Source: a virus. Taken from it: DNA of 57,739 nt. The stretch is taken from the IMG/VR virus record IMGVR_UViG_3300029305_003605; one strand, 5' to 3'. Made by a program: the position numbers and the translations under genes. The first letter of the stretch is position 1, and the number at the start of each line of letters is the position of its first letter. Below are positions 9,766 through 57,739 of the stretch, one piece after another. Under the pieces are notes generated by a model that was not told the DNA's origin, did not search any database, and saw nothing but the letters and a program-made list of their open reading frames with translations.

Positions 9766-11010
9766 ATGGAATATTATGGCAGTCCTCGTTGGACAGGTGA
9801 AATAGCAGATTGCAGTATGCCTATGACAATGGATACATACAGTAATTGTAGTTATAATTGTCAGTATTGCTTTTCGCAATTTCAGAGAGCATTGGGTGGG
9901 TGCAAAGAGAATTATTTGCATAAGAAGGTAAAATGGGTAAACCCAGAGAAAATTAAGCAGATGTTTTTACACCCAGACAGTTCACAATTTGGGGAATACA
10001 TCAAACAAAGGAAGGTAATGCAATGGGGTGGACTTTCGGATCAGTTTGACGAGAATGAGAGAATGTACGGAATTACTCTCGACCTGTTGAAATTCTTCCG
10101 AAAAATTGAGTATCCAATATCTTTCTCAACAAAAAGCACTTGGTGGACAAAAGATGAGAGATACGCAAAGTTATTCAGAAACAATCCGAATTGGAATGTT
10201 AAGGTAAGTATTATTACATTAGAGGAGCATAAAGCCAGAATTATAGAGGCAGGGGTAGATAGTCCGCAGGAGAGATTAGAGGCGATAGAACGCATAGCAA
10301 ATTGGAACGCAGGGGGTGCAACACTCCGTCTGCGACCTTTTGTTATAGGAATTACTACACCGAGTTATCTTGACCTTATCAAAGAGGCACACAAAAGGGG
10401 TGCAACGGCAGTAAGTACAGAGTTTTTCTGCGTGGAGCAGAGAAGTACATTGTTAAAGCAAAAAATGCCGAAATTTAATGCTTTGTGCGGATTTGATTTA
10501 ATGCAATTCTATAAAAAATATTCTCCGCAACAGGGATATTTGAGATTAAACCGCAATGTTAAAAGACCTTTCGTACAGAAGATGAAGACATTGTGTGATG
10601 AGTTGGGTATGAGATTTTATGTATCCGATAGCCACTTCAAAGAGTTGAGTTGCAATGGAAGTTGTTGCGGATTGCCAGAGAATTGGAATTACAGTAGAGG
10701 GCAGTTCACACAGGCATTGTTAATCGCAAAAGAGAAGGGAGTAGTTACCTACCCAGAGATAAAAGAGGATATTGAAAAATTATTCTCTGGATTTGAGTGG
10801 GGAAGTGCAAACGGATTTAATTGCGGAAGTAGTGAGAAAAGAGCAAAATTTAAGGATATGACAATGGCGGATTATATGCACTACCTGTGGAATAACCCAC
10901 AAAATGGGCAAAGTCCGTACAAATTGTTTGAGGGAGTTCTCACACCAGAAGGCAAAGATGAGAACGGAGATATTATTTACGCATATAACGCAGACAGGAG
11001 CATAAAATAG
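9766..11010 (+). CDS. Radical SAM enzyme (SPL/COG1533-like)
   Basis: C28-x3-C32-x2-C35 (YSNCSYNCQYCF) near the N-terminus. 414 aa, with GGGGAGA upstream. Confidence 0.7.
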   Translation: MEYYGSPRWTGEIADCSMPMTMDTYSNCSYNCQYCFSQFQRALGGCKENYLHKKVKWVNPEKIKQMFLHPDSSQFGEYIKQRKVMQWGGLSDQFDENERMYGITLDLLKFFRKIEYPISFSTKSTWWTKDERYAKLFRNNPNWNVKVSIITLEEHKARIIEAGVDSPQERLEAIERIANWNAGGATLRLRPFVIGITTPSYLDLIKEAHKRGATAVSTEFFCVEQRSTLLKQKMPKFNALCGFDLMQFYKKYSPQQGYLRLNRNVKRPFVQKMKTLCDELGMRFYVSDSHFKELSCNGSCCGLPENWNYSRGQFTQALLIAKEKGVVTYPEIKEDIEKLFSGFEWGSANGFNCGSSEKRAKFKDMTMADYMHYLWNNPQNGQSPYKLFEGVLTPEGKDENGDIIYAYNADRSIK

Positions 11011-16831: not shown

Positions 16832-17203
16832 ATGACGGAGAAGGCAAATAAACTCATACCGACAGAGGCAGAGGAGCAGAAGGCATTGTGCGAGTGGTTA
16901 CGCAAGCATAATATCCGTCATTTTTCAACATCTATGGGAGTTTGGTTCGGGAAGACAAATTACCGATATATAATGAGCCTCAAAAGTCGTGGATTTGAAG
17001 TAGGTGTACCAGATTTGGTACTCCTTTTTGACAATGGGGTAACGGCATTTATTGAACTCAAAAGAAGGGATAGGAATGCGAGTAAGGTAAGACCGTGCCA
17101 GACAGAGTGGATAGAGTGGTTACAGGCACACGGATACCCTGCCAGAATATGTTACGGAGCGGTTGAGGCGGTACAGTTTGTAAAGGAAATCATAGGGCAG
17201 TGA
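16832..17203 (+). CDS. VRR-NUC domain nuclease
   Basis: EEQKALCEWL...GVPDLVLLF...AFIELKR...VRPCQTEWIEWL matches the VRR-NUC PD-(D/E)xK pattern. Confidence 0.65.
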   Translation: MTEKANKLIPTEAEEQKALCEWLRKHNIRHFSTSMGVWFGKTNYRYIMSLKSRGFEVGVPDLVLLFDNGVTAFIELKRRDRNASKVRPCQTEWIEWLQAHGYPARICYGAVEAVQFVKEIIGQ

Positions 17204-17496: not shown

Positions 17497-18948
17497 ATGA
17501 ATGTAAAAACAGAAAAAAAATTCTTAAATCCGAAAAAAGACTATTTTTCATTGGATTACAGGGTACACAACATCAATTTTATGAGTGATTTTGACGATGA
17601 TAGTGCAACCAGATTTATTGAGCAGATTCGTGCATACAGTAAAGAGATTGCTAATTACCCAGAGGAATACGACAAAAACACGGATATATACTTATACATC
17701 AACAGTAGAGGTGGGGTAGTAACCTCACTTTTGGCTATGATAGACGCAATGAATTTAGTACCTAACGATTTTGTAACGGTGGGCATTGGTCAATGTGCAA
17801 GTTGCGGAGCGGTATTGCTATCCGCAGGTAAGAAGGGCAAGAGATATATCACAGAAAATGCAAGAGTGTTAATACATCAAGTTTCTGGCGGTGTTTGGGG
17901 TAAAAATTCCGAAATACAGGCAGACGCAAGAGAGATTGAGAGATTAAACAAATTGCTAATTGGTATGCTTGCAAAGAATTGCGGAAAAACTGTTGAGGAG
18001 TTGGAGCAATTAACATTGGGTGGAGATTTAGTGTTAGACGCACAACAGGCAGTAGAGTTCGGAATTGTGGACGCAGTACTCACCAAAGAAGTAATTGACC
18101 GTTTGAATAACGCAGACAATCCAGAGATAGTTGTACCAGAGAGTGAAAATGACGGTGAAGGCACACCAGATAACGCACCTATGGAATACAAAAACGATGA
18201 AAACTACTCAAACTCCTTCTTGAAAATGGAAATTAAGTCCGTTAAAGATGAAGGTGGATTTTTCTATATTAAGGGGTATGCAAGTACACCAGATGTGGAT
18301 AGAGTTGCAGACATTGTTAAGCCAGATTGCCTGTTAAAGTCAGTACAAAGAATGGGTATGCCTGCATTTATACATCAACACGACCTGTCTGGAATACCAA
18401 TGGGAGTATGTGAAAAGGTGTATATGGAAGGCACAAATACCGTAGTTGAGTTAAAAATGCCAAAAGATGATTTGGGTAAGACCGTTAAGAACAGAGTGGA
18501 CATCGGAGCATACAAAGGACTTTCTATCGGATTTGTGGCAAAGGATTATGAGTTCACACCAGAAGGATACAGAGTTATTAACGATTTAGATTGGTACGAA
18601 GTCAGCCTCGTAACCGTACCTGCTAACCCGAATGCAGAGATATTAGAGGTTAAAAACAGACAGAAAACACAAAAAAATAAAACTTGTGATATAATAAACA
18701 ACATAAAGACAATCCGAGATGTAGAAAATCTTTTATGCGAATTAGGAATAAGCAAAAAAGAGGCAGGGTACATTATCAAAGTGGTAAAATCTTCGCAGGG
18801 AGAGCCTGTTACAGAAGATGAGGGAGAGGGAGAGCCAAAACCAGAGCCACAGATAGAGGAAAAACCGCAAGAAGACAATAACACACAGGCAACAGACTTC
18901 TTGGCAGGGGTACTCAATACATTAAAGGAAGTAAACGGCAATAAGTAG
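17497..18948 (+). CDS. Fusion of a ClpP-like (S14) and an HK97-type (S78) prohead protease
   Basis: The N-terminal half has GQCASCGAVLLSAG, VLIHQVSGG and LVLDAQQAVEFGIVDAV (ClpP Ser/His/Asp contexts). The C-terminal half has GYASTPDVDRVADIV, HQHD, GLSIGF, EVSLVTVPANPNA and RDVENLLCELGISKKEA (S78 pattern). Confidence 0.65.
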   Translation: MNVKTEKKFLNPKKDYFSLDYRVHNINFMSDFDDDSATRFIEQIRAYSKEIANYPEEYDKNTDIYLYINSRGGVVTSLLAMIDAMNLVPNDFVTVGIGQCASCGAVLLSAGKKGKRYITENARVLIHQVSGGVWGKNSEIQADAREIERLNKLLIGMLAKNCGKTVEELEQLTLGGDLVLDAQQAVEFGIVDAVLTKEVIDRLNNADNPEIVVPESENDGEGTPDNAPMEYKNDENYSNSFLKMEIKSVKDEGGFFYIKGYASTPDVDRVADIVKPDCLLKSVQRMGMPAFIHQHDLSGIPMGVCEKVYMEGTNTVVELKMPKDDLGKTVKNRVDIGAYKGLSIGFVAKDYEFTPEGYRVINDLDWYEVSLVTVPANPNAEILEVKNRQKTQKNKTCDIINNIKTIRDVENLLCELGISKKEAGYIIKVVKSSQGEPVTEDEGEGEPKPEPQIEEKPQEDNNTQATDFLAGVLNTLKEVNGNK

Positions 18949-32479: not shown

Positions 32480-33796
32480 ATGGCATTTAATCCACCGAGC
32501 ATAGAAGAAATTATTGACAGGGAGAAAACCTATATTAAGGAAGTTTTGAAAAGTCTTAATCCGACAGATCAAAACGCATTTTTGTATAGTTTGCTTGTGG
32601 CAATGGCAAATTTGAGCAACGATAACAATATGCAGTTAAAGATAGATATTATACCAAACTCATTTGTAACTACTTGTAAGACAGAAGACGCATTGCAACC
32701 ATTTGCGGACATAAAAAGTGTACCAAAAAATTTGGCAACTGTTAGTAGTGGGAAGGCAGTAATTAGCGGTATTGCAGGCACGGTAATACCGATAGGTACA
32801 AACTTTTTGGCAAATGATGTAAAATACAGGCAGACGGCAACAGTAGAAATTGCAGAGCAGAGCATTGGTATTAGCAATATCTCCGCAAATGGCAGAACAG
32901 TAACCGTAACAACGGTGAGTGAACATAATTTTGCGAGCAACATACCAATAACAATTTCGGGGTGCAACACAGAGGCATTTAACGGCACATTTAACACGGT
33001 TACGGTAACAGGATTAACAACATTCACCTACACAATAGAAAACTCCGTCACGGCTACGGAAAGTAGCGGAGATTTAATTGCAAGTGCAACTATTGCAGTA
33101 TTAAATTTAAGAAGTCAGACATACGGACAGATAACAAACTTGAAAAATGGCGATAGTTTGGCTATTGAAGGACAGATTGCAGGGGTGAATAATAACGCAT
33201 ACACAATGTTTAGCGGAATTTCTGGCGGTGCTGATGATGAGGCATTTGAGGAATGGAAAAAGAGAGTTGTGTATAGATTTCAACACCCTATAACCTACTT
33301 CAATGTAGCGAATATAAAGACGGCAGTATTAGCAATTTCGGGGAATACTAGATGTTGGGTGAAGGAATGCACACCGAATGTTGGGCAGGTAACAGTATAT
33401 TTCGTTAGGGATAATGACGCAGATATACTCCCAGACAGTAACGAGATTGCAAAAGCAAAAGAGGCGGTAGAGGCATTACGCACGGTTAAGGATAGCAATT
33501 CAGATGTATTTGTATATGCACCGACATCAAAGGTGGTAAATTTCAACATCAGTAATGTTGTACCAAACACGGCAACAATGAAGACGGCTATTGAGAATAA
33601 TATTAAACAATTCTTTGACGATAATGTTGATTTAGAGGCAACATTAAGTCTGGAGAAAATCAAATCGGCTATACAGAGCAGTTTTGATTTAGAAACAGGC
33701 AAACAGTTGGATACATACACTTTGAATACTCCAAGTGCAGATATTGTTTGCGGTACAGGTGAATTACCTGTTTTGGGTACAATAACCTTTTCGTAG
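32480..33796 (+). CDS. baseplate J-like protein (Mu gp47-like)
   Basis: 438 aa between the gp46-like and gp48-like genes. Confidence 0.6.
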   Translation: MAFNPPSIEEIIDREKTYIKEVLKSLNPTDQNAFLYSLLVAMANLSNDNNMQLKIDIIPNSFVTTCKTEDALQPFADIKSVPKNLATVSSGKAVISGIAGTVIPIGTNFLANDVKYRQTATVEIAEQSIGISNISANGRTVTVTTVSEHNFASNIPITISGCNTEAFNGTFNTVTVTGLTTFTYTIENSVTATESSGDLIASATIAVLNLRSQTYGQITNLKNGDSLAIEGQIAGVNNNAYTMFSGISGGADDEAFEEWKKRVVYRFQHPITYFNVANIKTAVLAISGNTRCWVKECTPNVGQVTVYFVRDNDADILPDSNEIAKAKEAVEALRTVKDSNSDVFVYAPTSKVVNFNISNVVPNTATMKTAIENNIKQFFDDNVDLEATLSLEKIKSAIQSSFDLETGKQLDTYTLNTPSADIVCGTGELPVLGTITFS

Positions 33797-33805
33797 GCAC
33801 AGGGA

Positions 33806-34423
33806 ATGGGGAGAACAAAGCAGATGATAGAAACAGGAAAAATAACATCACAGGCAGATTTGTTGGCAAGATATTTACCAGACGGAAAAGCGTGGAATGC
33901 AAAATTTATTGAAGAAAGTAATTTGCGAAAACTTTTGAAAGGTCTGGGGAAGGAATTTAGCAATATAGAGGAGCAAAATGAGTGGTTGAGGAGAGAGTTA
34001 AACATCTTCACCACTTATGACTTGTTGCCAGAGTGGGAGAAACACTACGGAATACCAGACGATGAGGGAGTATTCACGGTAGAAGGGAAGACCATTGAAG
34101 AACGCAGATTAAACCTGTATATTAAAGAGTTAATGGACGGAGCGGATAAGGCAGAGGATTGGGAGAGAATTGCAAGTCTTTTCGGATTTAAGTGTAAAGT
34201 ATATCCTGCCATTGAGGTTAGCAGATTTCCGCTAACATTCCCGATATTATTCACAGAAAATCCAAGTTATACTATAATCGTAGATTTATATGATGTATTA
34301 CCGCCTGCGGAATTTCCGTTGGTATTCCCTGTATATTTCGGGGAATATACGGCAAGTTTTATTAAGAAGGTATTTAACATCATAAAACCTGCGGATTGTA
34401 CTATAATGTATAATTATCTATAG
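33806..34423 (+). CDS. Mu gp48/DUF2313 (YmfQ-like) tail protein
   Basis: LLARYLPDGKAWNAK...LLPEWEKHYGIP is the family signature. Confidence 0.7.
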   Translation: MGRTKQMIETGKITSQADLLARYLPDGKAWNAKFIEESNLRKLLKGLGKEFSNIEEQNEWLRRELNIFTTYDLLPEWEKHYGIPDDEGVFTVEGKTIEERRLNLYIKELMDGADKAEDWERIASLFGFKCKVYPAIEVSRFPLTFPILFTENPSYTIIVDLYDVLPPAEFPLVFPVYFGEYTASFIKKVFNIIKPADCTIMYNYL

Positions 34424-34466: not shown

Positions 34467-35936
34467 ATGGACATCGTTTCAAAAAGCACAGGTGATACCC
34501 TTTCGGCTAATGAGTTCAACCAAATTCCTAACGAATTGGAAGGACTTATCGCAAAAGGCGGATTAACACCAGACGACACAGACCTCACCCAAGTAGCAAA
34601 GGCAGTAAGCCAGATTGTTGCAGACGGTGATTTTTACACAACAGGGGGTACGGCAGACGCAATAACACTTTCGGCAGTATCACCGAGAATAGCACCTACC
34701 GTGCTAACAAACGGATTAAAGGCAAGATTTATTAGTGCGTCAGATAACACAGGAGCAGTTACAGTAAATCTTGGGGGATTGGGTGCAAAAACTGTTTACA
34801 AAAGAGGAGCAAACCTCGTAGCAGGAGATATTAAAGCAGGCGGAATATACGAATTAGTGTATATCTCCGCAAATTCAGCATTTGAGATTACACAATTTTT
34901 ACCAGATGTTGAAGAGGCAGATCCAAAAGACTTTCGTGTTAGCCAGAAGGATTTCATACAGGCATACGATAAAGACACTCTTGTTATAAAGGCAAATACC
35001 GTAATCACATTACAGGTAACAGGAGAAGATGAGCCGAGAATTTACAGAGCAAATCAAGATACTACATACGATTTGGCAAGTATTCTTGACACAGGTAGTG
35101 TTGCAGTTGGTACAGATTATTACATCTATCTTGTTGCAGGAAGTGGTAGCACGGTTAATGTTGTTGCCTCAACAAATAGCACATATCCGACAGGATATAC
35201 GGCAAACAATTCTCGTAAAATTGGCGGTTGCCACACATTATGTGTTTCGGTAACATCTGCAAATGCTCCTGCACTTGTAGATACAAACATTTGGAGTACC
35301 CACCCTGCTATTGGATATAACGCAGGAGATATTATTCCGAACTCTGTTTGGTGTTTAACTCACAGACCATTATCAGAGCCGAACGGAATGGTATATATTG
35401 ATAAGATTGATATGTGGGTAGATATTTACCTACAATCTGGTACAAACCTCACGGCAGGTAGTGTTTACGGTGCAACAATGACAAACTCACGCACTCAACA
35501 ACAACATCAATGGGATATGGAATTGCAGAATAAGAAATTGGCAACGGATAATGACTTCACAGTATTTGCAGAAGGAAGTAACCAAAAAACTGCGGTCAAA
35601 GGTTCTGCACAGCCAAACCCATTTAATGCAGGTGGACATTTAGACACGGCAAATAAGAGAATGATTAGTGGATATTTCGTAGAAGAATGTTGCGGACTTA
35701 TTTGGCAATGGCTTGACGAGTGTTCTGCTAATGGTGGCAGTAACTTCTCAACCTATGACGGAGAAGGTACAAGAGGTCAAACATACGGCAGTTCTTATTG
35801 CTTGCTTGCGGGCGGTCCTTGGGATCACTCCTCGTCTTGCGGTTCTCGTTGTCGGACTGGTCATAGTGTTCGCTCGTCTGTGTTTGCGGCTCACGGTGCT
35901 CGTGGGGTGAGCCGACCTAAAATCTTGAATGTGTAG
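34467..35936 (+). CDS. tail fibre / receptor-binding protein, DGR target (C-terminal CLec-like variable domain)
   Basis: 489 aa directly after the baseplate genes. The last ~45 codons contain the VR. The C-terminus is Cys/Gly/Trp-rich (CCGLIWQWLDE...LLAGGPW...). Confidence 0.8.
   Translation: MDIVSKSTGDTLSANEFNQIPNELEGLIAKGGLTPDDTDLTQVAKAVSQIVADGDFYTTGGTADAITLSAVSPRIAPTVLTNGLKARFISASDNTGAVTVNLGGLGAKTVYKRGANLVAGDIKAGGIYELVYISANSAFEITQFLPDVEEADPKDFRVSQKDFIQAYDKDTLVIKANTVITLQVTGEDEPRIYRANQDTTYDLASILDTGSVAVGTDYYIYLVAGSGSTVNVVASTNSTYPTGYTANNSRKIGGCHTLCVSVTSANAPALVDTNIWSTHPAIGYNAGDIIPNSVWCLTHRPLSEPNGMVYIDKIDMWVDIYLQSGTNLTAGSVYGATMTNSRTQQQHQWDMELQNKKLATDNDFTVFAEGSNQKTAVKGSAQPNPFNAGGHLDTANKRMISGYFVEECCGLIWQWLDECSANGGSNFSTYDGEGTRGQTYGSSYCLLAGGPWDHSSSCGSRCRTGHSVRSSVFAAHGARGVSRPKILNV
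35800..35910 (+). repeat. DGR variable repeat (VR)
   Basis: 111 bp aligning without gaps to 36198..36308. It has 92 identities and 19 mismatches, all opposite TR adenines. Confidence 0.9.
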
Positions 35937-36496
35937 TTTTGTAACAATTTCACAAACACAAACACAAAGCAAGATACAAAGAAAAATTAAGTGGTACGCA
36001 AGTGCGAAGGGGGAGCAGTACGGAGCAAGCGAAGACAACGGTGCGGAGTACATCTGCACAAAGGGGCGGAATATCCGTCAATCGCAAATCCTGTGAAGGC
36101 ACACCGTATGCAAACCTTTCGTGATTACCACTTGATAACACCAGACGGCAGAAATGTCGTAGGGGGTTATAGGTTGAAAGTTACAAAGTTCACAGGCACT
36201 TGCTTGCAGGCGGTAATTGGAATAACTCATCGTCTTGCAGTTCTCGTTGTCGGAATGGTAATAATGTTCGCTCGAATGTGAATGCGAATAACGGTGCTCG
36301 TGAGGTGATATGGGGTGCAGTACCCGACTTTTTTCGGCTACTTCAAAAAAACTCAAAGGGAAGTAACTCCATCTGAATTTTCAACCCTGTCTATAATAAC
36401 CATAAAAGGCAAAATACGAAACGGAGTGAGTGTCTTGTTGGTAGGGAGTGTAACAATTCCCGAAGATGAGGCACTCTTGATATATGGAGAAAAGAA
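35937..36496 (+). ncRNA. Putative DGR template RNA region (TR plus GC-rich non-coding flanks/spacer)
   Basis: No credible ORF. Visibly more G+C-rich than the surrounding genome, and it contains the TR. By analogy with the Bordetella phage DGR RNA (upstream sequence-TR-spacer). Confidence 0.4.
36198..36308 (+). repeat. DGR template repeat (TR)
   Basis: Invariant copy. In the VR frame it is rich in AAT/AAC codons (LLAGGNWNNSSSCSSRCRNGNNVRSNVNANNGARE). It contains 26 adenines, 19 of which are substituted in the VR. Confidence 0.9.
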
Positions 36497-37594
36497 TTGG
36501 TAAAAAGACACGGCAACCTGTGGGAGCAGGTTATCAGCAAAGAGAATTTTTTATTAGCATATCAAAAGTCAAAGAAAGGCAAAGGGAATTTTGTAGCGGT
36601 ACAGAGATTTCAACATAATTGGGAAGAGAAGTTAGAGGCGGTAAGGCAACTGTTAATCACAAAGACTTTTCATACTGCACCGTATAATCGGAAGACGGTA
36701 TATGAGCCAAAAGAGAGGATAATATATGTACTCCCATACAAGCCAGACAGAATAGTGCAACACGCATTGATGAATATTTTAACACCGATTTTTGAGAGGT
36801 TATTTATCGCAGACAGTTATGCGTGTATTAAGTACAGAGGGCAACACAAAGGTAGTATGAGATGTATGGAATTTGTGAGAAGGAATAAATACTGTTTGAA
36901 GTGTGATATACGCAAATTTTACCCGAGCATAGACCAGAAGATATTATATGAGATGTTGGAGAGAGTTATTAAGGATAAAGATGTCCTGTGGCTACTCAAA
37001 GACATCGTATTTAGTTTTGAAGGGGGGAAGAATGTACCAATCGGCAATTTGACTTCCCAATGGTTCGGAAATTTTTACCTAACAAAAATGGATAGATTTA
37101 TTAAGCAGGAATTGAGGATAAAGGATTATGTTAGATATTGTGATGATTTTTGTTTATTTGGAAATGATAAAAAATATTTGCGAGAATGCAAAAGAAGAAT
37201 AGAGGAGTTTATCGGCAGAGAGTTGAAGTTGAAGTTTAGCAAAGCAGATGTATTCAACTGTAAGCAGGGAGTGGACTTCTTGGGGTATAGACATTTTGAT
37301 AATTACATACTCCTACGCAAGAGTACGGCAAAGAGAATTATACGCAGAATGGGGAAAGTCCAAAAAGAATTAGAATGTGGTATAATTACAGAAGAACAGT
37401 ACAGGTCAATTATAACATCAACTTATGGTTGGCTCAAACACGCAAATACTCACAATCTTCAAGTAAAATTACAACTCGGCAAACTTTTAGCAGAGATTAA
37501 ACAGAAGATTAGAGAGGAGCGAAAGATCAGAAAAGCAGAAAAAGAAAAACTTAAAAAACTGCAAGCAGAGGAGAAACAGGACAATGGACAATGA
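36497..37594 (+). CDS. DGR reverse transcriptase
   Basis: TTG start 7 nt after GGAG. N-terminal KRHGNLWEQV..., the IGNLTSQWFGNFYL ((I/L)GxxxSQ) motif and the RYCDDF catalytic box. 365 aa. Confidence 0.85.
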   Translation: MVKRHGNLWEQVISKENFLLAYQKSKKGKGNFVAVQRFQHNWEEKLEAVRQLLITKTFHTAPYNRKTVYEPKERIIYVLPYKPDRIVQHALMNILTPIFERLFIADSYACIKYRGQHKGSMRCMEFVRRNKYCLKCDIRKFYPSIDQKILYEMLERVIKDKDVLWLLKDIVFSFEGGKNVPIGNLTSQWFGNFYLTKMDRFIKQELRIKDYVRYCDDFCLFGNDKKYLRECKRRIEEFIGRELKLKFSKADVFNCKQGVDFLGYRHFDNYILLRKSTAKRIIRRMGKVQKELECGIITEEQYRSIITSTYGWLKHANTHNLQVKLQLGKLLAEIKQKIREERKIRKAEKEKLKKLQAEEKQDNGQ

Positions 37595-37892
37595 AATACA
37601 TAGTTTTTCAGATTTTGCCGTAGAGGAGCAAGCATTAGAGGGTGATAAAGTTAAAATTGAGAGCATACTCAACAAAGAGATAATTGTAACACGGTATAAA
37701 ATCCGTGATAGCAAATACTCGGATAACAATAAAATGTGCGTAGCGGTACAGTTCTATGAGCCAGACAATCCAGAGAAAAGAATATTTTTCACAGGAAGTG
37801 GGGTAATACAGGATTTATTAGTAAAGTACAATGACAATTTACCATTTAAGACGGTGATTAAAAAGATTGACAGGTATTTTACTTTTACATAA
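37584..37892 (+). CDS. hypothetical protein overlapping the RT stop (candidate DGR accessory)
   Basis: 102-aa ORF whose ATG lies 11 nt inside the RT 3' end. It does not look like the helical, basic Avd. Confidence 0.55.
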   Translation: MDNEIHSFSDFAVEEQALEGDKVKIESILNKEIIVTRYKIRDSKYSDNNKMCVAVQFYEPDNPEKRIFFTGSGVIQDLLVKYNDNLPFKTVIKKIDRYFTFT

Positions 37893-37943: not shown

Positions 37944-38240
37944 ATGCGTGGATTTCCGAAATTATTAAACACAAAACAGGATTATTTGAATTGTATTACA
38001 GATTATCCGCAAGAAACAAAAGTACAATTACAGGGGTTATTAGATAACCGCTACAAATGGGAAGACAAAGGGGAGATACAGGCAGGGGATATTCCTGTTG
38101 ATGATGATACCCATAGAATTGTAACCGATGAAGACGGCAAACAATGCCAATTAGAGTTGGTTGAAGATGAGAATGCAAAAATCTTCCGTATCGGATTTAC
38201 AGTTGAAGAAGTTGAAGAACTTATTGCAGGTATAGCATAG
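37944..38240 (+). CDS. hypothetical protein
   Basis: 98-aa ORF with GGGAGAA upstream. Confidence 0.6.
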   Translation: MRGFPKLLNTKQDYLNCITDYPQETKVQLQGLLDNRYKWEDKGEIQAGDIPVDDDTHRIVTDEDGKQCQLELVEDENAKIFRIGFTVEEVEELIAGIA

Positions 38241-38252
38241 GAGATAAAGAAA

Positions 38253-38783
38253 ATGGCAAAGAATACGGTAAAAATTTACTACAACAAAGAGGGTGAATAT
38301 TTGTACTCTGGCAATCAAAAGGAAGGCGATAGAGAGGCAACACAGGCAGAGATTGCATATTGGACTGCTAACGGCAGTACTATTGAGGGTGATAGAGCGA
38401 AAAAGAATGCAGAAAACACACAGGCATACAATAATGCACTCCAATCACCTTTGGTATGCGGTCAATATCTGGTAATCGCAGAGTGGATAAACACCTACAC
38501 AAACACCTACACATACGCAAAAAAATGTACCGATGAAGGAATTGTTCCGACAGCGGACATTGTTGCATTTAACCATTTAGGGAAGTTAGAAACGGTAACA
38601 ATATCATCAATAGAAGACTTTTTACCATTCTATCAAACAGTTGCAGATGAGTGGGCAAGAATTACCGATATTAGAAACAAATATTTGGTACAAATACAGA
38701 ACACAGACGCACCGAAAGATGTTGTAATTTCATACGCAAAAGGTGCAGAAGACGCAGACGCAGACGCAGAGGCAGAAGAATAA
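38253..38783 (+). CDS. hypothetical protein (possible fibre assembly/chaperone)
   Basis: 176-aa ORF with TAGGAGA upstream. The role is guessed from position only. Confidence 0.5.
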   Translation: MAKNTVKIYYNKEGEYLYSGNQKEGDREATQAEIAYWTANGSTIEGDRAKKNAENTQAYNNALQSPLVCGQYLVIAEWINTYTNTYTYAKKCTDEGIVPTADIVAFNHLGKLETVTISSIEDFLPFYQTVADEWARITDIRNKYLVQIQNTDAPKDVVISYAKGAEDADADAEAEE

Positions 38784-38794
38784 TAAGAAAACAG

Positions 38795-39112
38795 GTGCAA
38801 AGAACTATGAGCAGAATATTTTACAAGGGAGATACGGTAAAGAACGCAGTTAAGGTAACATTTGACAATTTTGAGATGTTAGATACCCTTAACATCGGGT
38901 ATGCCATATTTCAAGTAGGATTGGTGCGTAAAACTGTTCAAAGAGAGGATATAACAAATCCGATGTTCTTATCATTCACCAGAGAAGAAACCAAAAAAAT
39001 GGCAAGTGAAACAAAGGGATTTGTTGCCTTTTACAATAATTCCGATGAGAAGTTTACTGCAAAAGGCTCATTCACCCTTAATATGCACAACGAGGTAGTA
39101 AAAGATGAGTAA
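38795..39112 (+). CDS. hypothetical protein
   Basis: GTG start, with an alternative ATG at 38807. 105 aa. Confidence 0.5.
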   Translation: MQRTMSRIFYKGDTVKNAVKVTFDNFEMLDTLNIGYAIFQVGLVRKTVQREDITNPMFLSFTREETKKMASETKGFVAFYNNSDEKFTAKGSFTLNMHNEVVKDE

Positions 39113-39515
39113 TGAGCAGAGAGATGATGTAGAATTTCTTTTACACTTTGAGATACCAGACGATGAGCCTGTTGTTGAAACTACAATGGACATACAAGAG
39201 GCAGAGGAGCAAGTAGTCGCTAATATTTCGTTAGATGTTTCACCTTCAAAGGTTAGTGAGTTAGAAAATGATGTCGGATTTATAACCAGAGAAGACACTA
39301 CCAATACTCGCATATATCCTCTGGGAGAAACTACGGATAGAGATGAAGACGGTAAATATGTCTGGACTATTCAACACAACTTGGGTAAATTCCCGAATAC
39401 ATTTGTGGTGGATAGTGCAGGCAGTAAAGTATTACCAGACTTTGATTATCCAGATGAGAATACGGTGATTATTAAGTCAAATTATTCTTTCACAGGAAAA
39501 GCATACATAAACTAA
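39105..39515 (+). CDS. putative tail fibre-associated protein
   Basis: VSELENDVGFIT motif and a C-terminal beta-rich WTIQHNLGKFP...VVDSAG domain, both common in fibre proteins. Confidence 0.45.
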   Translation: MSNEQRDDVEFLLHFEIPDDEPVVETTMDIQEAEEQVVANISLDVSPSKVSELENDVGFITREDTTNTRIYPLGETTDRDEDGKYVWTIQHNLGKFPNTFVVDSAGSKVLPDFDYPDENTVIIKSNYSFTGKAYIN

Positions 39516-39577
39516 AACCAAACCAAACCAGAAAACAGTATTAGAAGACGATGATTTAAAATAGGAGAAAATTAAAA

Positions 39578-41170
39578 ATGGCAAAACGAATTAGCGATTT
39601 GGATATGAACGACTTGCAAGTCCTCAATGTCCGTTTACAGAATTTGGCAACATCACCTACGGCAAAGATAGGTAAAATTTACTTTAACACGGCAGAAAAC
39701 GCATCCAAAGGATTTTTGAATGACGGCACAGAGGTAAACCTCGGAAACAATTACACATTCAGCACAGGATTAAGTGAGGATGCTGAAACTCACACAGTAA
39801 CTCTTAAAATTGCAAGTGCAAGTCAGTTGGGCGGTGTTATCATCGGCTCAAATATTTCTGTATCTGCAACAGGAGAGATAAGTGTAGCAAATGCAAGTAC
39901 ATCTGGAAAAGGTGTTATTGAAATTGCAACAGACGCAGAAGTGGCAACAGGAACAGATACAAGCAGAGCAGTTACACCGAAACAATTAGCAGGGAAGGTT
40001 AGCAAACTTGCAACTGCTCCAACGGCAGGTACATATACAAAGGTCGTAATCACAGAAGACGGTCTGGTATCTTCTGGGGGTTCTTTGTCAGCAGGAGATA
40101 TTCCGAGTATAACATTGAGCAAGATTAGCGATGTAACTGCAACGGCAACTGAATTAAACATCTTGGACGGAGCAACCGTTACAACGGAAGAATTAAACAT
40201 ATTAGACGGAGTTACAGTATCCGCAAGTGATATAAACTCTGTAACAAGTAAAATTAGTTTATCTGCATTGAGCATTGATAGCGGTTCAGCAAATTATTTA
40301 GCATATGATAGTGCAACAGGAAAATTCTCTGCAAAAGTGGATACTGCACCTGCAAACAATTCAACAAAGTTAATCACATCAGGCGGAGTATATTCTGCAT
40401 TAGCAGATAAGGTTACAAAAAATACCGCAATCTCGGCAGGCACAAAATGCAAAATTACATACGATACAAAAGGATTGGTAACAAACGGAGAAGATTTATC
40501 TGCAAGCGATATACCAGACCTTTCAGCAACATATTTATCTGCAACTTTGAAGGGTGCAAACAACGGTGTTGCAGAATTGGATAGCACAGGTAAAGTACCG
40601 AGTGCTCAATTACCGTCATTTGTAGATGATGTTATTGACGCATACATCGTATCAGGTGCAACGGCATTATCAGCAGGGTGGTTAAGTGCTACAAGCGGTG
40701 GCTCGGCATTAACTCCAGAAACAGGGAAGATATATGTGGTACTTTCTTCTGGCGAATACCTTAATAAAACATATCGTTGGAGCGGTACTACCTATGTTGA
40801 AATCTCTGGAAGTCCTGCACAGGCAAGTGAGAGTGTAGCAGGTATTGCAGAACTCGCAACACAAACAGAAGTAAACACAGGTACAGACGACCAAAGAATT
40901 GTTACACCGAAAAAACTTGCTACTTATGTTAGCGGTATGGCAAAGAAAATTACTGCTACAAACCCTGCATTAACTGCAACAAACGGTATATGCACTTGGA
41001 GCATTACAAACAGTTTAGGCACGGCAGATGTAATCGTACAATTAAGAGAAACATCATCTGGAGAAGTTGTGTACGCAGATTACACATTAACTTCTGGCAC
41101 GGTAACAGTAACAATCAATTCAACATCTAATATTACCGCAGGCACATACACGGCAGTAATCATTGGGTAA
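39578..41170 (+). CDS. tail fibre protein (second fibre)
   Basis: Two copies of the fibre motif G(V/I)xExAT..Ev.tGTD..RaVTPk.LA, and tandem ELNILDG(A/V)TV repeats. Confidence 0.7.
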   Translation: MAKRISDLDMNDLQVLNVRLQNLATSPTAKIGKIYFNTAENASKGFLNDGTEVNLGNNYTFSTGLSEDAETHTVTLKIASASQLGGVIIGSNISVSATGEISVANASTSGKGVIEIATDAEVATGTDTSRAVTPKQLAGKVSKLATAPTAGTYTKVVITEDGLVSSGGSLSAGDIPSITLSKISDVTATATELNILDGATVTTEELNILDGVTVSASDINSVTSKISLSALSIDSGSANYLAYDSATGKFSAKVDTAPANNSTKLITSGGVYSALADKVTKNTAISAGTKCKITYDTKGLVTNGEDLSASDIPDLSATYLSATLKGANNGVAELDSTGKVPSAQLPSFVDDVIDAYIVSGATALSAGWLSATSGGSALTPETGKIYVVLSSGEYLNKTYRWSGTTYVEISGSPAQASESVAGIAELATQTEVNTGTDDQRIVTPKKLATYVSGMAKKITATNPALTATNGICTWSITNSLGTADVIVQLRETSSGEVVYADYTLTSGTVTVTINSTSNITAGTYTAVIIG

Positions 41171-41200
41171 TGAGTAAGTGAGCAAATTAGGTAAAAGAAA

Positions 41201-41734
41201 ATGGGGAAATATCTAAATTTATCAACGGATACCACATTGGGTGGAAATAATCCAAGCGACATAAAAGCACCTTCCCAGAAGGCAATCAAGACTTATATTG
41301 ACAATCAATCTGGGGGTGGTGGAAGTTCTTGGACATATACCTCACATACTTTGATATATAGCGATACAACCTATGGGAATAAAAGCATTGATTTATCAGG
41401 GGTACTGCCAAGTTCGGGCAGTACCTTTGAATTGCTTTTATCGTTATACACGGATACAGGCGATGTGTCAAATGTATTCCCTTTGATGTTCCCTGTAAAT
41501 TTACGGACAATAGATCCGAGTTTGACAGGCAGAACATTTAGCATATATACGAGCAGTGGGAGAACGGTTAAAAAATATCAATATACCGATAATTCGGTAA
41601 ATTATATACAATCTAACGGTGGAATTATACTACCGGTGGAAAGTACAACAATGTACGCAAAAATGGAAGGTACAAATGACCTCAATTTCAAAGAGTTCAA
41701 ATTGTATCTTGACGGATATAAGGTACTATCATAA
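41201..41734 (+). CDS. putative tail fibre/receptor-binding protein (third)
   Basis: N-terminal LSTDTTLGGNNPSDIKAPSQKAIKTYID motif, typical of fibre N-termini. Confidence 0.45.
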   Translation: MGKYLNLSTDTTLGGNNPSDIKAPSQKAIKTYIDNQSGGGGSSWTYTSHTLIYSDTTYGNKSIDLSGVLPSSGSTFELLLSLYTDTGDVSNVFPLMFPVNLRTIDPSLTGRTFSIYTSSGRTVKKYQYTDNSVNYIQSNGGIILPVESTTMYAKMEGTNDLNFKEFKLYLDGYKVLS

Positions 41735-42102
41735 TGCAACGAGCAAAGGGGGTAACAGATATGGCAAGTTGGTGGAGAAACATTGCAACATTTAAGGGCA
41801 AGTTTACAGAGGCATTTACAAAAGACAAAATTGAGGAGTTTGTAGATGAGATTAAAAAACTCATTGAGAAGTATGAGGAGTACAAATCACTATCTGGCAA
41901 AGAGAAGAAACAGAGAGTTGATGAGTTTATTGTAGAATGGCTTATTGAAAATTGGCAGAGCGACAATGATTATGTTCAATGGATAATTGACCGTATTATT
42001 GATTTAGTGCCTGTTTTCACACAGGTAGTGTACAATTTACTGATTACAAAATTTGTGAAGTTGAAAGACCGAGCAAAAACAGAAAAGGCAGAGGATAAGT
42101 AG
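41734..42102 (+). CDS. hypothetical helical protein
   Basis: 122-aa ORF with a TAATG overlap with the upstream gene. Confidence 0.55.
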   Translation: MQRAKGVTDMASWWRNIATFKGKFTEAFTKDKIEEFVDEIKKLIEKYEEYKSLSGKEKKQRVDEFIVEWLIENWQSDNDYVQWIIDRIIDLVPVFTQVVYNLLITKFVKLKDRAKTEKAEDK

Positions 42103-46182: not shown

Positions 46183-46681
46183 AGACAAAGCATATTGGAG
46201 AGGCGGATACACTTTAGAAGACCTCGTAAAATATTGCGACAATAGTGGATTAAACAGAGAAGACATACAGATAGTATGCGGTGTGTATGACATTGATAAA
46301 AATGGCGATAACAAAGGGTGCAAAATGTGTGCGGTGCAAAATTTCAGACTTTGCATTACAGACGGCTTTTTGGAAATTATGACGAGAAAAGACAGTTATC
46401 AAGACGCAGACGCATATTATAAAACAAAAATTACTTATGAAGATACAGGAAAAATGTTGAAATATACAGGAAGGGGTGCAGACTGTTATTGCACAACACA
46501 ATGGGAATATTTTGATAAAAGTATGTATTTGACACAAATATGTAACCCAGACAAACTTGAACATACAGAATGGTACGATGTTCACGACATTAAAGGGGAT
46601 ATTTTTCATATTACAGTAGGCAACAAAACCTACAAAAATTGCACTTGGGCAAACAACAGAATAGTGAGGGTTACAAAATGA
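46160..46681 (+). CDS. hypothetical Cys-rich protein
   Basis: 173-aa ORF overlapping both neighbours. Confidence 0.55.
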   Translation: MTTVANGKDKAYWRGGYTLEDLVKYCDNSGLNREDIQIVCGVYDIDKNGDNKGCKMCAVQNFRLCITDGFLEIMTRKDSYQDADAYYKTKITYEDTGKMLKYTGRGADCYCTTQWEYFDKSMYLTQICNPDKLEHTEWYDVHDIKGDIFHITVGNKTYKNCTWANNRIVRVTK

Positions 46682-48354
46682 GCAATGCAGAAACAACACA
46701 ATTAGTATTGGAATTAAAAGAGCAGGAGCAGGATTATGAATTTTATCCTACTACAAAGGAAATAATTGCTTGCATACACGAGCATATCAATAGCCATTGG
46801 GAAATTGAACATTATGCTAACAAAGTGCTTGATATAGGGTGTGGCACAGAAAACTTCCGAAAACATATTAAAGAATTACACCACGAAAGAGAATTGTGGA
46901 AGGAAAATGCAAGCAAAAGACCAGACGGCAGTTACGATAACGGAATAAGAAATGCACGAAATTGGTACATTTCAGAATATTTTGTTATGGAAAAATCTAA
47001 AATACTTTTGCAACAATTAGACAAAAAAACAATAGTTCTTGGAACAGATTTTTACGATAACACATTAGTAGATAAAGAAATGGACTTAATTTTCTGCAAT
47101 CCACCGTATTCAGCATACGCAGAATGGACAAAAAGAATAATTGCAGAGAGTAATTGCAAATACATTTATTTAGTTATCCCAGAGCGGTGGAAGGAAGACG
47201 CAGAAATACAAAAAACTATTGAAACTATCGGAGCAGAGGCAACGGCAATAGGTTCATTTGATTTTCTAAATGCAGAGAGATCCGCAAGAGCAAAAGTAGA
47301 TGTTGTTTTCATTGATAAAACAAAAGTACCTACGGATAATGCTTTTGACCGTTGGTTCGATGAAACTTTTAAGATGAGAGATAAGGAAGAAAAATCCGAG
47401 TGGAAAGTAGAAGAGGAGAAGGAAAAAGACATTAAAAACGAATTAGTTGGCGGAAAAAACAAAGGTGAAATGCTGATAAATTTATACGAGGCAGAGCAAA
47501 GAAAACTCTACGAGCATTTTTTAGCGATAAGTGGACTTGATGTTGATATTTTAGAGAGTATCAACATACAGAAATCAGCCGTCAAGAAGGCATTAAAAGA
47601 ACGGATACAGGGATTGAAAACATTATATTGGAAAATAGTTTTTGATGAATTAGATGAGATTACAAGCAGGCTGACATCAAAAACCAGAGAGAAGATGTTT
47701 AACAGGTTCAAAAGTTTGCAAACGGTAGATTTTACGATACAGAATATTTACAGTTTAATAATTTGGGTAATCAAAAACGCAAATAATTATTACAACGACC
47801 AGATGATAGAGTTCTTTAAGACTTTATCTTCACCAGAAAATTGCAGGGCATACAAAAGCAACGACAGAATTGGCACTCGTAATTGGAGATTTGCCGATGA
47901 GAATAGCCATTATACATTGGATTACCGTATTATTTGCGATAATTTAAGTTTTAGCAATTATTACAGTTGGGATAAAGAGATAGACAAATGGAAAGCAATG
48001 CAAACTATTGACGACATTTGCACGATAGCAAATAATTTGAATTTTGAAGTCGGAATTAGAGATGTACCAAAGGATTATGGCAAAAAATATACAATTCTTT
48101 TGAAAAACGGAGAAACTTTTTGCGATTTCAGAATTTATAAAAACGGCAATACACATTTGAAATTCAATAAAGAATTTATGAAGGCATTGAATGTAGAAGT
48201 CAGCAGACTTTTGGGGTGGATAAACAAACCAGAAGATATTGCCAGAGAATTTGATGATGAAATCAAAGAAGGTGCAGAAAAGTATTTTAAGTATAATATG
48301 CAATTTAGTATCACAGGCAATGGCATAAAACTACTCGGTACTACAAAAAGTTAA
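46678..48354 (+). CDS. DNA methyltransferase, NPPY (N6-adenine type) with large C-terminal domain
   Basis: ATGA-coupled start. Motif I VLDIGCGTENF, motif IV DLIFCNPPYS, N-terminal YEFYPTTKEII, and an extra C-terminal region of about 380 aa. Confidence 0.7.
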   Translation: MSNAETTQLVLELKEQEQDYEFYPTTKEIIACIHEHINSHWEIEHYANKVLDIGCGTENFRKHIKELHHERELWKENASKRPDGSYDNGIRNARNWYISEYFVMEKSKILLQQLDKKTIVLGTDFYDNTLVDKEMDLIFCNPPYSAYAEWTKRIIAESNCKYIYLVIPERWKEDAEIQKTIETIGAEATAIGSFDFLNAERSARAKVDVVFIDKTKVPTDNAFDRWFDETFKMRDKEEKSEWKVEEEKEKDIKNELVGGKNKGEMLINLYEAEQRKLYEHFLAISGLDVDILESINIQKSAVKKALKERIQGLKTLYWKIVFDELDEITSRLTSKTREKMFNRFKSLQTVDFTIQNIYSLIIWVIKNANNYYNDQMIEFFKTLSSPENCRAYKSNDRIGTRNWRFADENSHYTLDYRIICDNLSFSNYYSWDKEIDKWKAMQTIDDICTIANNLNFEVGIRDVPKDYGKKYTILLKNGETFCDFRIYKNGNTHLKFNKEFMKALNVEVSRLLGWINKPEDIAREFDDEIKEGAEKYFKYNMQFSITGNGIKLLGTTKS

Positions 48355-57421: not shown

Positions 57422-57739
57422 ATGAAAACAAAATTTTGTAAAAATTGCGGAAAAGAAAAATCAATTAAGGAATTTTATCGACATTCAAACACAAAAGACG
57501 GATATTTTAATATATGCAAAGAATGCGTGATAAAAAGAGCAAAAAATTATAGAAAAGAAAATATAGAAAAAGTAAGAGAATACGACAGAAACCGACCAAA
57601 TAAAGAAGAACGATATGTAAAAAATAAAGAGTATGTAAAAAATAATAGAAAACGTGTTAATGAGGCAAAATTAAATTGGAAAAAAAGAAATAAAGATAAG
57701 GCAAATGCTTATGTAAAAGTAAATAGAGCAATAGAAAAA
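57422..57739 (+). CDS. HNH endonuclease, N-terminal part (continues at 2..286)
   Basis: Begins MKTKFCKNCGKEK...ICKEC (zinc finger). The ORF is open to the window end and continues in frame at the window start, for 158 aa in total. Confidence 0.75.
   Translation, partial: MKTKFCKNCGKEKSIKEFYRHSNTKDGYFNICKECVIKRAKNYRKENIEKVREYDRNRPNKEERYVKNKEYVKNNRKRVNEAKLNWKKRNKDKANAYVKVNRAIEK
57613..57739. repeat. Terminal overlap identical to 1..127
   Basis: See the first feature. Confidence 0.9.

Follow-up and report, generated by a model that had tools for sequence, protein, structure and literature searches.

The 57,739-nucleotide stretch of viral DNA analysed here over its full length, IMG/VR virus record IMGVR_UViG_3300029305_003605 and hereafter the window, carries between positions 34,467 and 37,594, all on one strand, the gene for a 489-aa tail fibre, a 111-bp segment at the 3' end of this gene that recurs in a second copy downstream, and a reverse transcriptase (RT) gene, whose end is overlapped by a short open reading frame (ORF) of 102 aa, here called ORF102 (Table 1). 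We interpret this locus with high confidence as a functional diversity-generating retroelement (DGR), the segment within the fibre gene being its variable repeat (VR) and the downstream copy its template repeat (TR), and the phage genome in which it lies measures about 57.6 kb. The window encodes terminase, portal, capsid and a Mu-type baseplate, and because its two ends overlap by an exact 127-nt direct repeat (1-127 and 57613-57739), as is typical of assemblies of circular or complete genomes, and nearly identical contigs, 57-59 kb long, were recovered from several samples, it is probably a complete genome. A preliminary description made from the letters of this one sequence had recognized the signature of adenine-directed mutagenic retrohoming, and this view is supported by the alignment of the repeats, the affinity of the RT, the homology of the target to the tail protein Mtd and the natural variation of the VR.

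Scripted re-alignment of the two copies, which lie 398 bp apart, gave 111 columns with 92 identities and 19 mismatches, every one of the 19 opposite a TR adenine (nine A>C, seven A>G and three A>T), with seven TR adenines unchanged in the VR and no difference at any C, G or T position. The coordinates of the repeat and the count of matches and mismatches in the preliminary description were thereby reproduced exactly, no mismatch at a non-adenine template position came to light in careful alignment, and the abrupt loss of similarity noted at both ends was recovered as well, identity dropping to background level directly beyond the repeat. The first of the columns (35800 G / 36198 A) lies on the boundary and is left out of the strict VR, which comprises 110 nt with 18 mismatches. 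The probability that 19 chance mismatches would all land on the 26 adenines among 111 positions is 5.6e-16. With every A replaced by N, the TR pattern matches the window at the VR and the TR only (0 matches expected), and the element therefore has a single target, whose TAG stop (35934-35936) follows the end of the VR after 23 nt. Read in the target frame, the TR holds ten AAY codons, in agreement with its earlier characterization as rich in AAT and AAC, together with one AGT and one GAG; these are the 12 codons able to alter an amino acid, and mutation of the TR adenines can produce no stop codon. The earlier estimate of about 12 diversifiable codons thus stands as a codon count, but only ten of them vary in nature.

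Independent assemblies of the same phage were used to measure activity, as a proxy for read pile-ups. The target of the window (P0391) belongs to a cluster of 89 target proteins at 90% identity, and the 13 full-length members compared carry 13 distinct VR peptides, in which five to nine residues occur at each of the ten positions encoded by AAY, and 1.05 residues on average at the other 477 positions. Codons 459 (AGT in the TR; 35841-35843) and 480 (GAG in the TR; 35904-35906) encode Gly in 13/13 of these natural variants, which points to selection holding these two of the twelve mutable codons fixed. The window and three related genomes (L012, L049 and L050; L numbers are our labels for related loci) have TRs that are 100% identical and VRs that all differ, the polymorphism among the four falling on 20 of 25 adenine positions versus one of 85 others (Fisher 2e-16), with the single non-adenine difference in L049. 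Between the window and L012 alone the VR shows 14 differences, all at TR adenines and none at the 85 non-adenine positions, in a gene that is otherwise 3.2% divergent, and such changes at adenine positions separate phages that are otherwise 95-97% identical. The same adenine pattern surrounds the different TRs of two sister groups (L017/L018/L023/L024 and L034-L038). Since all 13 of the near-identical phages of the 90%-identity cluster have distinct VRs, diversification outpaces the divergence of the lineages. Adenine-dependent variation of the VR, anticipated from the single sequence, is thus borne out in independent assemblies, and the element is active in nature, or recently was.

The target gene comes directly after the genes for baseplate J (32480-33796) and a Mu gp48-like protein (33806-34423), the place where a tail fibre is expected. 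The protein matches the Pfam family mtd_2nd (PF21916, E 3e-21, 76.1 bits against a gathering cut-off of 24.6) and PHROG 11262 'tail protein' (E 4e-46), and a single-sequence search of PDB returned Mtd only (E 3e-15). A profile built from 50 sequences aligns residues 201-482 with residues 99-379 of Mtd (E 3e-24), so that the VR is included, and the homology takes in the VR motif GGxW...GSR...GARGV; likewise, the top five Foldseek matches of the AlphaFold2 (AF2) model of the target are Mtd variants (E 5e-9). Judged by this homology, the VR would form the C-terminus of a ligand-binding domain with a C-type lectin fold, and about 6e11 peptides are possible from the ten AAY codons alone. Downstream of the target stop, at 35950-35975 on the plus strand, lies a CA-rich run, CACAAACACAAACACAAAG, which differs by a 12-nt insertion in L012 and is microsatellite-like.

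The TTG-initiated 365-aa ORF reported after the template copy was confirmed; it begins 188 nt 3' of the TR, with a GGAG Shine-Dalgarno sequence 8 nt upstream of the TTG. Its closest relative of solved structure is Brt of Bordetella phage (8ub7_A, E 2e-54, 188 bits, residues 1-322), followed by a group II intron RT (E 1e-19, 74 bits) and a retron-type RT (E 2e-18), which gives Brt a lead of 35 orders of magnitude over the group II intron RTs. The motifs quoted in the preliminary description are all present, namely KRHGNLWEQV, IGNLTSQ (IGSLTSQ in Brt) and YCDDF with the catalytic YCDD (YMDD in Brt). The protein also matches Pfam RVT_1 and PHROG 1423 (E 1e-113), is 36% identical to the DGR RT of the archaeal virus ANMV-1, and can by these resemblances be assigned to the DGR clade of RTs.

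Table 1. Position, strand and supporting observations of the features of the cassette in the window (IMH, initiation of mutagenic homing; MFE, minimum free energy).
Feature	Position	Strand	Observations
Target gene, 489-aa Mtd-like tail fibre / receptor-binding protein	34467..35936	+	Pfam, PHROG, PDB, Foldseek
VR	35800..35910 (strict 35801-35910)	+	Target residues 445-482; mismatches adenine-only
VR 3' junction, candidate IMH / IMH* distinction	35895..35917	+	G+C-rich end GGTGCTCGTGRGGTGA, then GCCGACC
Structured non-coding insert, 145 nt, multi-stem	35989..36133	+	MFE z-score; lineage-specific
Conserved segment immediately 5' of TR, TAGGTTGAAAGTTACAAAGTTCACAGGC	36170..36197	+	Kept in relatives; remaining intergenic sequence variable
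TR	36198..36308	+	26 adenines, 10 AAY codons in target frame
TR-RT spacer, 188 nt	36309..36496	+	RT-17-like element 36383-36493; GGCAAAA + UGGUAG...CGAA hairpin
DGR reverse transcriptase, 365 aa, TTG start	36497..37594	+	Brt match, Pfam RVT_1, PHROG 1423, motifs
ORF102, 102 aa, candidate non-Avd accessory protein	37584..37892	+	ATG overlaps RT stop by 11 nt

The accessory protein Avd is present in 74% of DGRs and is not strictly defining for them; about a quarter to a third of the known elements are without it. None of the approximately 45 small ORFs of the window matched the bAvd-family models PF22296 and NF033474, to which bAvd itself, as a positive control, matches at 7e-36 and 6e-31, and a phmmer search with bAvd against the six-frame translation of the window found nothing; the cassette is without Avd anywhere in the window. 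A 96-aa ORF at 35991-36281, in the position of avd, was considered and set aside, having no family match and reading like translated non-coding sequence. Wu et al. (2018; PMC5758913) assigned 29% of DGRs to an architecture A with no accessory gene and suggested that an Avd-independent mechanism exists. The designation of the locus as a complete DGR in the preliminary description therefore holds for the core of TR, VR and RT but not beyond it, as there is no Avd and the 102-aa ORF at 37584-37892 lies just outside the interval 34467-37594 that had been delimited.

This ORF very probably belongs to the cassette. Homologues of ORF102 adjoin a DGR RT in seven of ten informative IMG/VR loci, standing beside the RT in L001, L002, L003, L006, L008 and L009 and between VR and TR in L011. 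A profile search retrieved 512 clusters at 90% identity and at least 1073 representatives at 50% identity, nearly all of 91-115 aa, without a Pfam domain and named 'hypothetical', and the distant members sampled lie directly after an RVT_1 gene in six of six cases. In a collection with one genome per species, 41 loci, in genomes ranging from Treponema to Methanogenium, contain a homologue; a DGR-type RT lies within 2.5 kb in 39 of them, the homologue is the ORF after the RT on the same strand in 33 and the ORF before it in four, and at least 24 contain an adenine-specific TR/VR pair within the short stretch fetched. The position of the gene varies: in most cases its translation is coupled to that of the RT, and in others it occupies the avd slot, as in L068 and L079 (Methanogenium cariaci) with the order VR - ORF102 - TR - RT. 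Fusions occur as well, since among the top 150 representatives four (P0161, P0225, P0232 and P0269) are DGR-type RTs (IGNY[LIT]SQ) that carry this domain in frame at their C-terminus. Among GenBank phage records, homologues were found in ANMV-1 and one Methanosarcinales virus only, both annotated 'hypothetical protein' and both directly after the DGR RT.

The AF2 model of ORF102 (predicted local distance difference test score, pLDDT, 88) has the order b1-b2-b3-alpha-b4-b5, as in the oligonucleotide/oligosaccharide-binding (OB) fold, whose five-stranded barrel has its helix between the third and fourth strands, and a search of BFVD with this model returned longer phage RTs at the top (E 4e-6, template modelling score, TM, 0.67), followed by phage single-stranded DNA-binding proteins (E ~5e-3). 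The order of strands and helix and these weak structural matches are compatible with an OB fold for ORF102. Comparison with Pfam (for all 65 members of the alignment), NCBIfam, PADLOC and PDB sequences gave nothing meaningful, and a limited literature search on OB-fold or other non-Avd accessory proteins 3' of DGR RTs found nothing relevant, a prior description being possible. Two candidate relatives were rejected, namely the long RT of L010 as carrier of a fused ORF102 domain (hhalign probability 0.3%) and the small BPP-1 gene bbp4, which overlaps the end of brt and is unrelated to ORF102. Two further ORFs without a family match are found in this neighbourhood: one of 98 aa at 37944-38240 (+), after ORF102, which is also conserved 3' of the cassettes of related phages, with identities as low as 30-35% (L043, L003), and may be part either of the tail module or of the DGR, and one of about 130 aa between VR and TR in L001 (5237-5641) and L055 (1777-2166), where it occurs besides an ORF102 homologue after the RT.

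In the non-coding part of the cassette, both repeats share the end GGTGCTCGTGRGGTGA (to 35910/36308), after which the VR continues with GCCGACC and the TR with TATGGGG, and this GC-versus-TA difference just past the junction is kept in all relatives; by analogy with BPP-1, the VR 3' junction may have the function of IMH. No conserved inverted repeat that could form a hairpin or cruciform was found within ~75 nt 3' of the VR, and the minimal relatives L033 and L017 are without one; neither an Avd nor a VR-adjacent hairpin is universal among DGRs, the latter being needed in some of them only. An 8-nt perfect inverted repeat that does span the VR 3' junction (35887-35894 / 35907-35914) draws half of its left arm from diversified bases; it is therefore peculiar to the VR variant of the window and probably a coincidence. 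The segment TAGGTTGAAAGTTACAAAGTTCACAGGC, which directly precedes the TR, is conserved in the window, L012, L014, L033 and L040 and partly in L017, and probably contributes the 5' portion of the DGR RNA.

The spacer between TR and RT resembles an RNA element that Rfam calls RT-17 (RF03020), for which nine related DGR loci score above threshold (41-59 bits) at this very position. In the window the spacer also gives weak full-length matches to RT-14 (21.6 bits) and RT-3, the scores ranging from 17 to 22 bits and all sub-threshold, so that this copy is a divergent relative of RT-17 and, by the Rfam criterion, not a member. RNAalifold predicted three helices in the spacers of seven relatives of the window lineage, with compensatory change in 15 of 28 pairs, one helix pairing the TR 3' flank UGGGGU with ACUCCA, a structure that agrees with what is expected of the spacer part of a DGR RNA. 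Directly 3' of the TR, at 36313-36335 (+), lies a terminator-like hairpin (36313-36325) with a T-run (GGGTGCAGTACCC GACTTTTTT), which is not conserved, being deleted in L014.

The region between the target stop and the TR (35937-36197) is predicted to fold with an MFE z-score of -6.1, none of 200 shuffles being as stable, and this is due to the 145-nt insert at 35989-36133. The insert is present in the species of the window (L012, L049 and L050 included) and in L014, and absent in L017 and L033, where the gap measures 84-85 nt; L040 and L035 carry other hairpins at its position. Two of its blocks are 100% identical between the window and L014, and its outer stem has four compensatory pairs between two lineages, a covariation support that is thin because only two independent lineages are available. 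The insert has no Rfam match at E<=10, an exact 22-mer of it was not found in IMG/VR and retrieved from JGI metagenomes only two further copies of the same phage, and a scan of a genome collection with an 18-mer gave eight matches, about the chance expectation, one of which (L029) is the same phage in a Clostridia metagenome-assembled genome (MAG).

Certain observations weigh against the reading of this locus as an active DGR served by ORF102, each bearing on one of its parts. The activity of the source population was deduced from other assemblies of the phage and not from reads. The AF2 model of the whole target has a pLDDT of only ~30 over residues 408-489, and because the model is too poor in these last 80 residues, it is the sequence homology to Mtd on which the assignment of a lectin fold to the VR is based. 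The full-length RT-17 match of the spacer reaches 17 bits against a gathering score of 40.4, and a scan for sigma-70-like promoters found none on the plus strand between the target gene and the TR. As for ORF102, it is not universal in the clade, the related DGR loci L004, L007 and L010 having no detectable homologue; Foldseek against PDB gave no significant match for its model (best E 0.08), many weak OB-fold matches being among the results; and its isoelectric point (pI; 5.4 for this member, 7.8 +/- 1.25 for the family) is unlike that of Avd, which is basic. With regard to activity, the cassette could be a fossil, the VR differences being a trace of past activity of an element that is now inactive, a view to which the reliance on assemblies in place of source-sample reads and the one non-adenine difference in L049 might lend themselves. 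We hold this to be very improbable, given that RT, TR and ORF102 are intact, that a TR conserved at 100% accompanies all-different VRs in four genomes, and that phages of at least 90% protein identity, mostly with few substitutions outside the VR, have distinct VRs in 13/13 cases. Still less room is left for an ordinary duplication next to an RT from another retroelement, such as a group II intron, a retron or a defence system. The best NCBIfam models are indeed those of group II (TIGR04416, 114.7 bits) and retron St85 RTs (68 bits), followed by Drt3a (54 bits), and the PADLOC matches are generic RT and RT_UG17; NCBIfam, however, is without a DGR-RT model, these scores are far under the curated cut-offs of 300, 235 and 200, the best PADLOC match is the generic one with no family-specific defence RT, and the RT scores much higher with Brt than with the best group II RT. 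A scan of the window with Rfam at gathering thresholds found no intron, retron or other known RNA, and the RT does not group with the group II intron or retron RTs, as the preliminary description had considered it might. Together with the adenine-only mismatches (P = 6e-16 when rounded), the alignment, RT scores, Rfam and statistics already refute this explanation, and its probability is practically nil.

The role of ORF102 and of the structured insert is less settled. On the basis of linkage, gene fusion and predicted fold, we lean slightly towards ORF102 being a non-Avd accessory factor of this DGR lineage, and we regard it as an evenly balanced question whether its family is a previously unrecognised, widespread class of DGR accessory proteins, that is, small OB-fold-like binders of single-stranded nucleic acid that replace Avd in an extensive DGR clade common to bacterial phages and archaeal viruses, ANMV-1 among them. 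The main alternative, which we consider somewhat less likely, is that the DGR runs on its RT alone or with host factors and that ORF102 is a hitch-hiking phage gene, e.g., a tail-fibre chaperone or structural accessory. Such a gene would be in keeping with the 29% of DGRs that have no accessory gene (Wu et al., 2018), with the related RTs of L004, L007 and L010, with a protein that is not basic and matches none of the known nucleic-acid-binding structures significantly, and with its place directly after the target in L011, L068 and L079, where a fibre chaperone would sit. What speaks against it is that the linkage tracks the RT and not the target, the targets being as different as an Mtd-like protein of 489 aa, one of 601 aa with no Pfam match, one of 439 aa and one of >964 aa, that proximity to a DGR-type RT is maintained in nearly all species-level genomes across bacterial and archaeal phyla, that the ORF102 start overlaps the RT stop in most cases, and that fusions to the RT C-terminus arose independently. 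The insert, for its part, could be a functional part of the DGR, either as 5' scaffold of the DGR RNA or as a DNA structure marking the target site, or else a passenger element. Its strong predicted fold, the compensatory changes in the outer stem, the other hairpins at the same place in two relatives and the identity of two blocks in the window and L014, whose target genes are only 77% identical, speak for a function. The sister phages L017 and L033, however, have active-looking DGRs without it, and its start lies 78 nt from the VR end, much farther than the BPP-1 hairpin, which lies ~4 bp 3' of the VR. We consider a function of the insert in the DGR unlikely.

In the mechanism that we propose, an RNA comprising the TR (36198-36308) and the 188-nt spacer would be bound by the RT (36497-37594), and ORF102, if it is the accessory factor, would bind the RT together with single-stranded RNA or cDNA, filling the role that Avd has in BPP-1. 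The RT would copy the TR into cDNA with misincorporation opposite template adenines, and this cDNA would take the place of the VR (35800-35910), with which the Mtd-like gene ends, the TR remaining unchanged. In this way the ten AAY codons of the C-terminal ligand-binding domain would be randomised to 15 amino acids each, with no stop codon, and the mutable codons 459 and 480 would always be selected back to Gly, the phage rewriting ten residues of its receptor-binding tip. It is by analogy with BPP-1 that we presume priming from the spacer, the direction in which sequence is transferred and a joint transcription of the cassette and the tail operon. The core of the element is, in our judgement, an ordinary textbook DGR and a clean example with natural proof of activity, and its Avd-less layout with a conserved, unannotated RT partner is a variant worth following up. 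To our knowledge, all mechanistic and structural work on DGRs, as well as the DGRec engineering tools, rests on the pair of Brt and Avd, and the cassette may offer a compact alternative system in which an RT and a 100-aa partner are combined with ~190 nt of spacer RNA, with a partner family that spans gut spirochaetes to methanogens.

Outside the cassette, the window gives some indications about the phage itself. The presence of a 99%-identical copy of the phage in a Clostridia MAG hints weakly at the host, and the cassette DNA had no match among 50,697 phage records. About 3 kb at 38750-41759 are absent in the 95%-identical L012. They encode a tail-fibre-like protein of 530 aa (39578-41170), which matches collar and fibre PHROGs, and the phage therefore has a second receptor-binding module that is varied by gene swapping and not by the DGR. 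A 483-aa protein at 17497-18948 (+) joins a ClpP-type protease domain (E 6e-43) to a caudovirus prohead protease S78 domain (E 9e-13), and as accessory genes a VRR-NUC nuclease is encoded at 16832-17203 (+) among the head genes, a radical-SAM-like protein just under the Pfam threshold at 9766-11010 (+), and a 571-aa DUF4942 protein at 46639-48354 (+).

Compared with phage BPP-1 (mtd - avd - TR - brt), the cassette has the same order of target(VR), TR and RT, all on one strand, an Mtd-homologous target with the same VR motif at its extreme C-terminus, and an RT whose nearest relative is Brt and which shares its SQ and YxDD motifs. The differences concern the surroundings of this core: BPP-1 has avd between mtd and TR, whereas the window is without Avd and has a non-coding VR-TR stretch with a structured insert; the TR-RT spacer measures 188 nt here and 144 nt in BPP-1; and the beta-rich ORF102 lies over the RT stop, where BPP-1 has the unrelated bbp4. 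The phages differ as well, the one having Mu-like baseplate genes and the other being a Rauchvirus, a podovirus-like phage. The literature on BPP-1 places a hairpin downstream of its VR, whereas no conserved hairpin follows immediately after the VR in the window, and the number of 12 mutable codons is the same as that given for Mtd by Paul et al. (2015; PMC4372165). The RNA of the spacer shares with RT-17 (RF03020) its place between TR and RT and the core of GGCAAAA and a UGGUAG...CGAA hairpin, and differs from it in that its first loop is longer and its outer stem is extended, the stem resembling RT-14.

The closest published relative in cassette layout is the archaeal virus ANMV-1 (Paul et al., 2015, PMC4372165; KP703175), in which a tail-fibre-like target, TR and RT are followed by an ORF of ~98 aa. 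This last ORF (AJP62065.1, 'hypothetical protein') is a homologue of ORF102 with 36% identity (E 7e-11), whereas the targets are not detectably similar by BLASTP and the hosts belong to different domains. The figure legend of that paper labels one ORF 'Avd', with no sequence evidence for the label in the accompanying portion of the text (PMC4372165). Among the architectures of Wu et al. (2018; PMC5758913), a TR-RT core without avd, as found here, corresponds to architecture A and Lineage 3, and their accessory classes are Avd, HRDC, MSL and CH1 (160-169 aa, pI 4.7). With its 91-115 aa and a pI of 7.8 +/- 1.25, the ORF102 family fits none of these four by size, charge or fold, being predicted to be beta-rich in contrast to the four-helix bundle of Avd. 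If its proposed role is true, ORF102 points to the Avd-independent route of retrohoming whose existence was inferred, and not assigned to a protein, by Wu et al. (2018).

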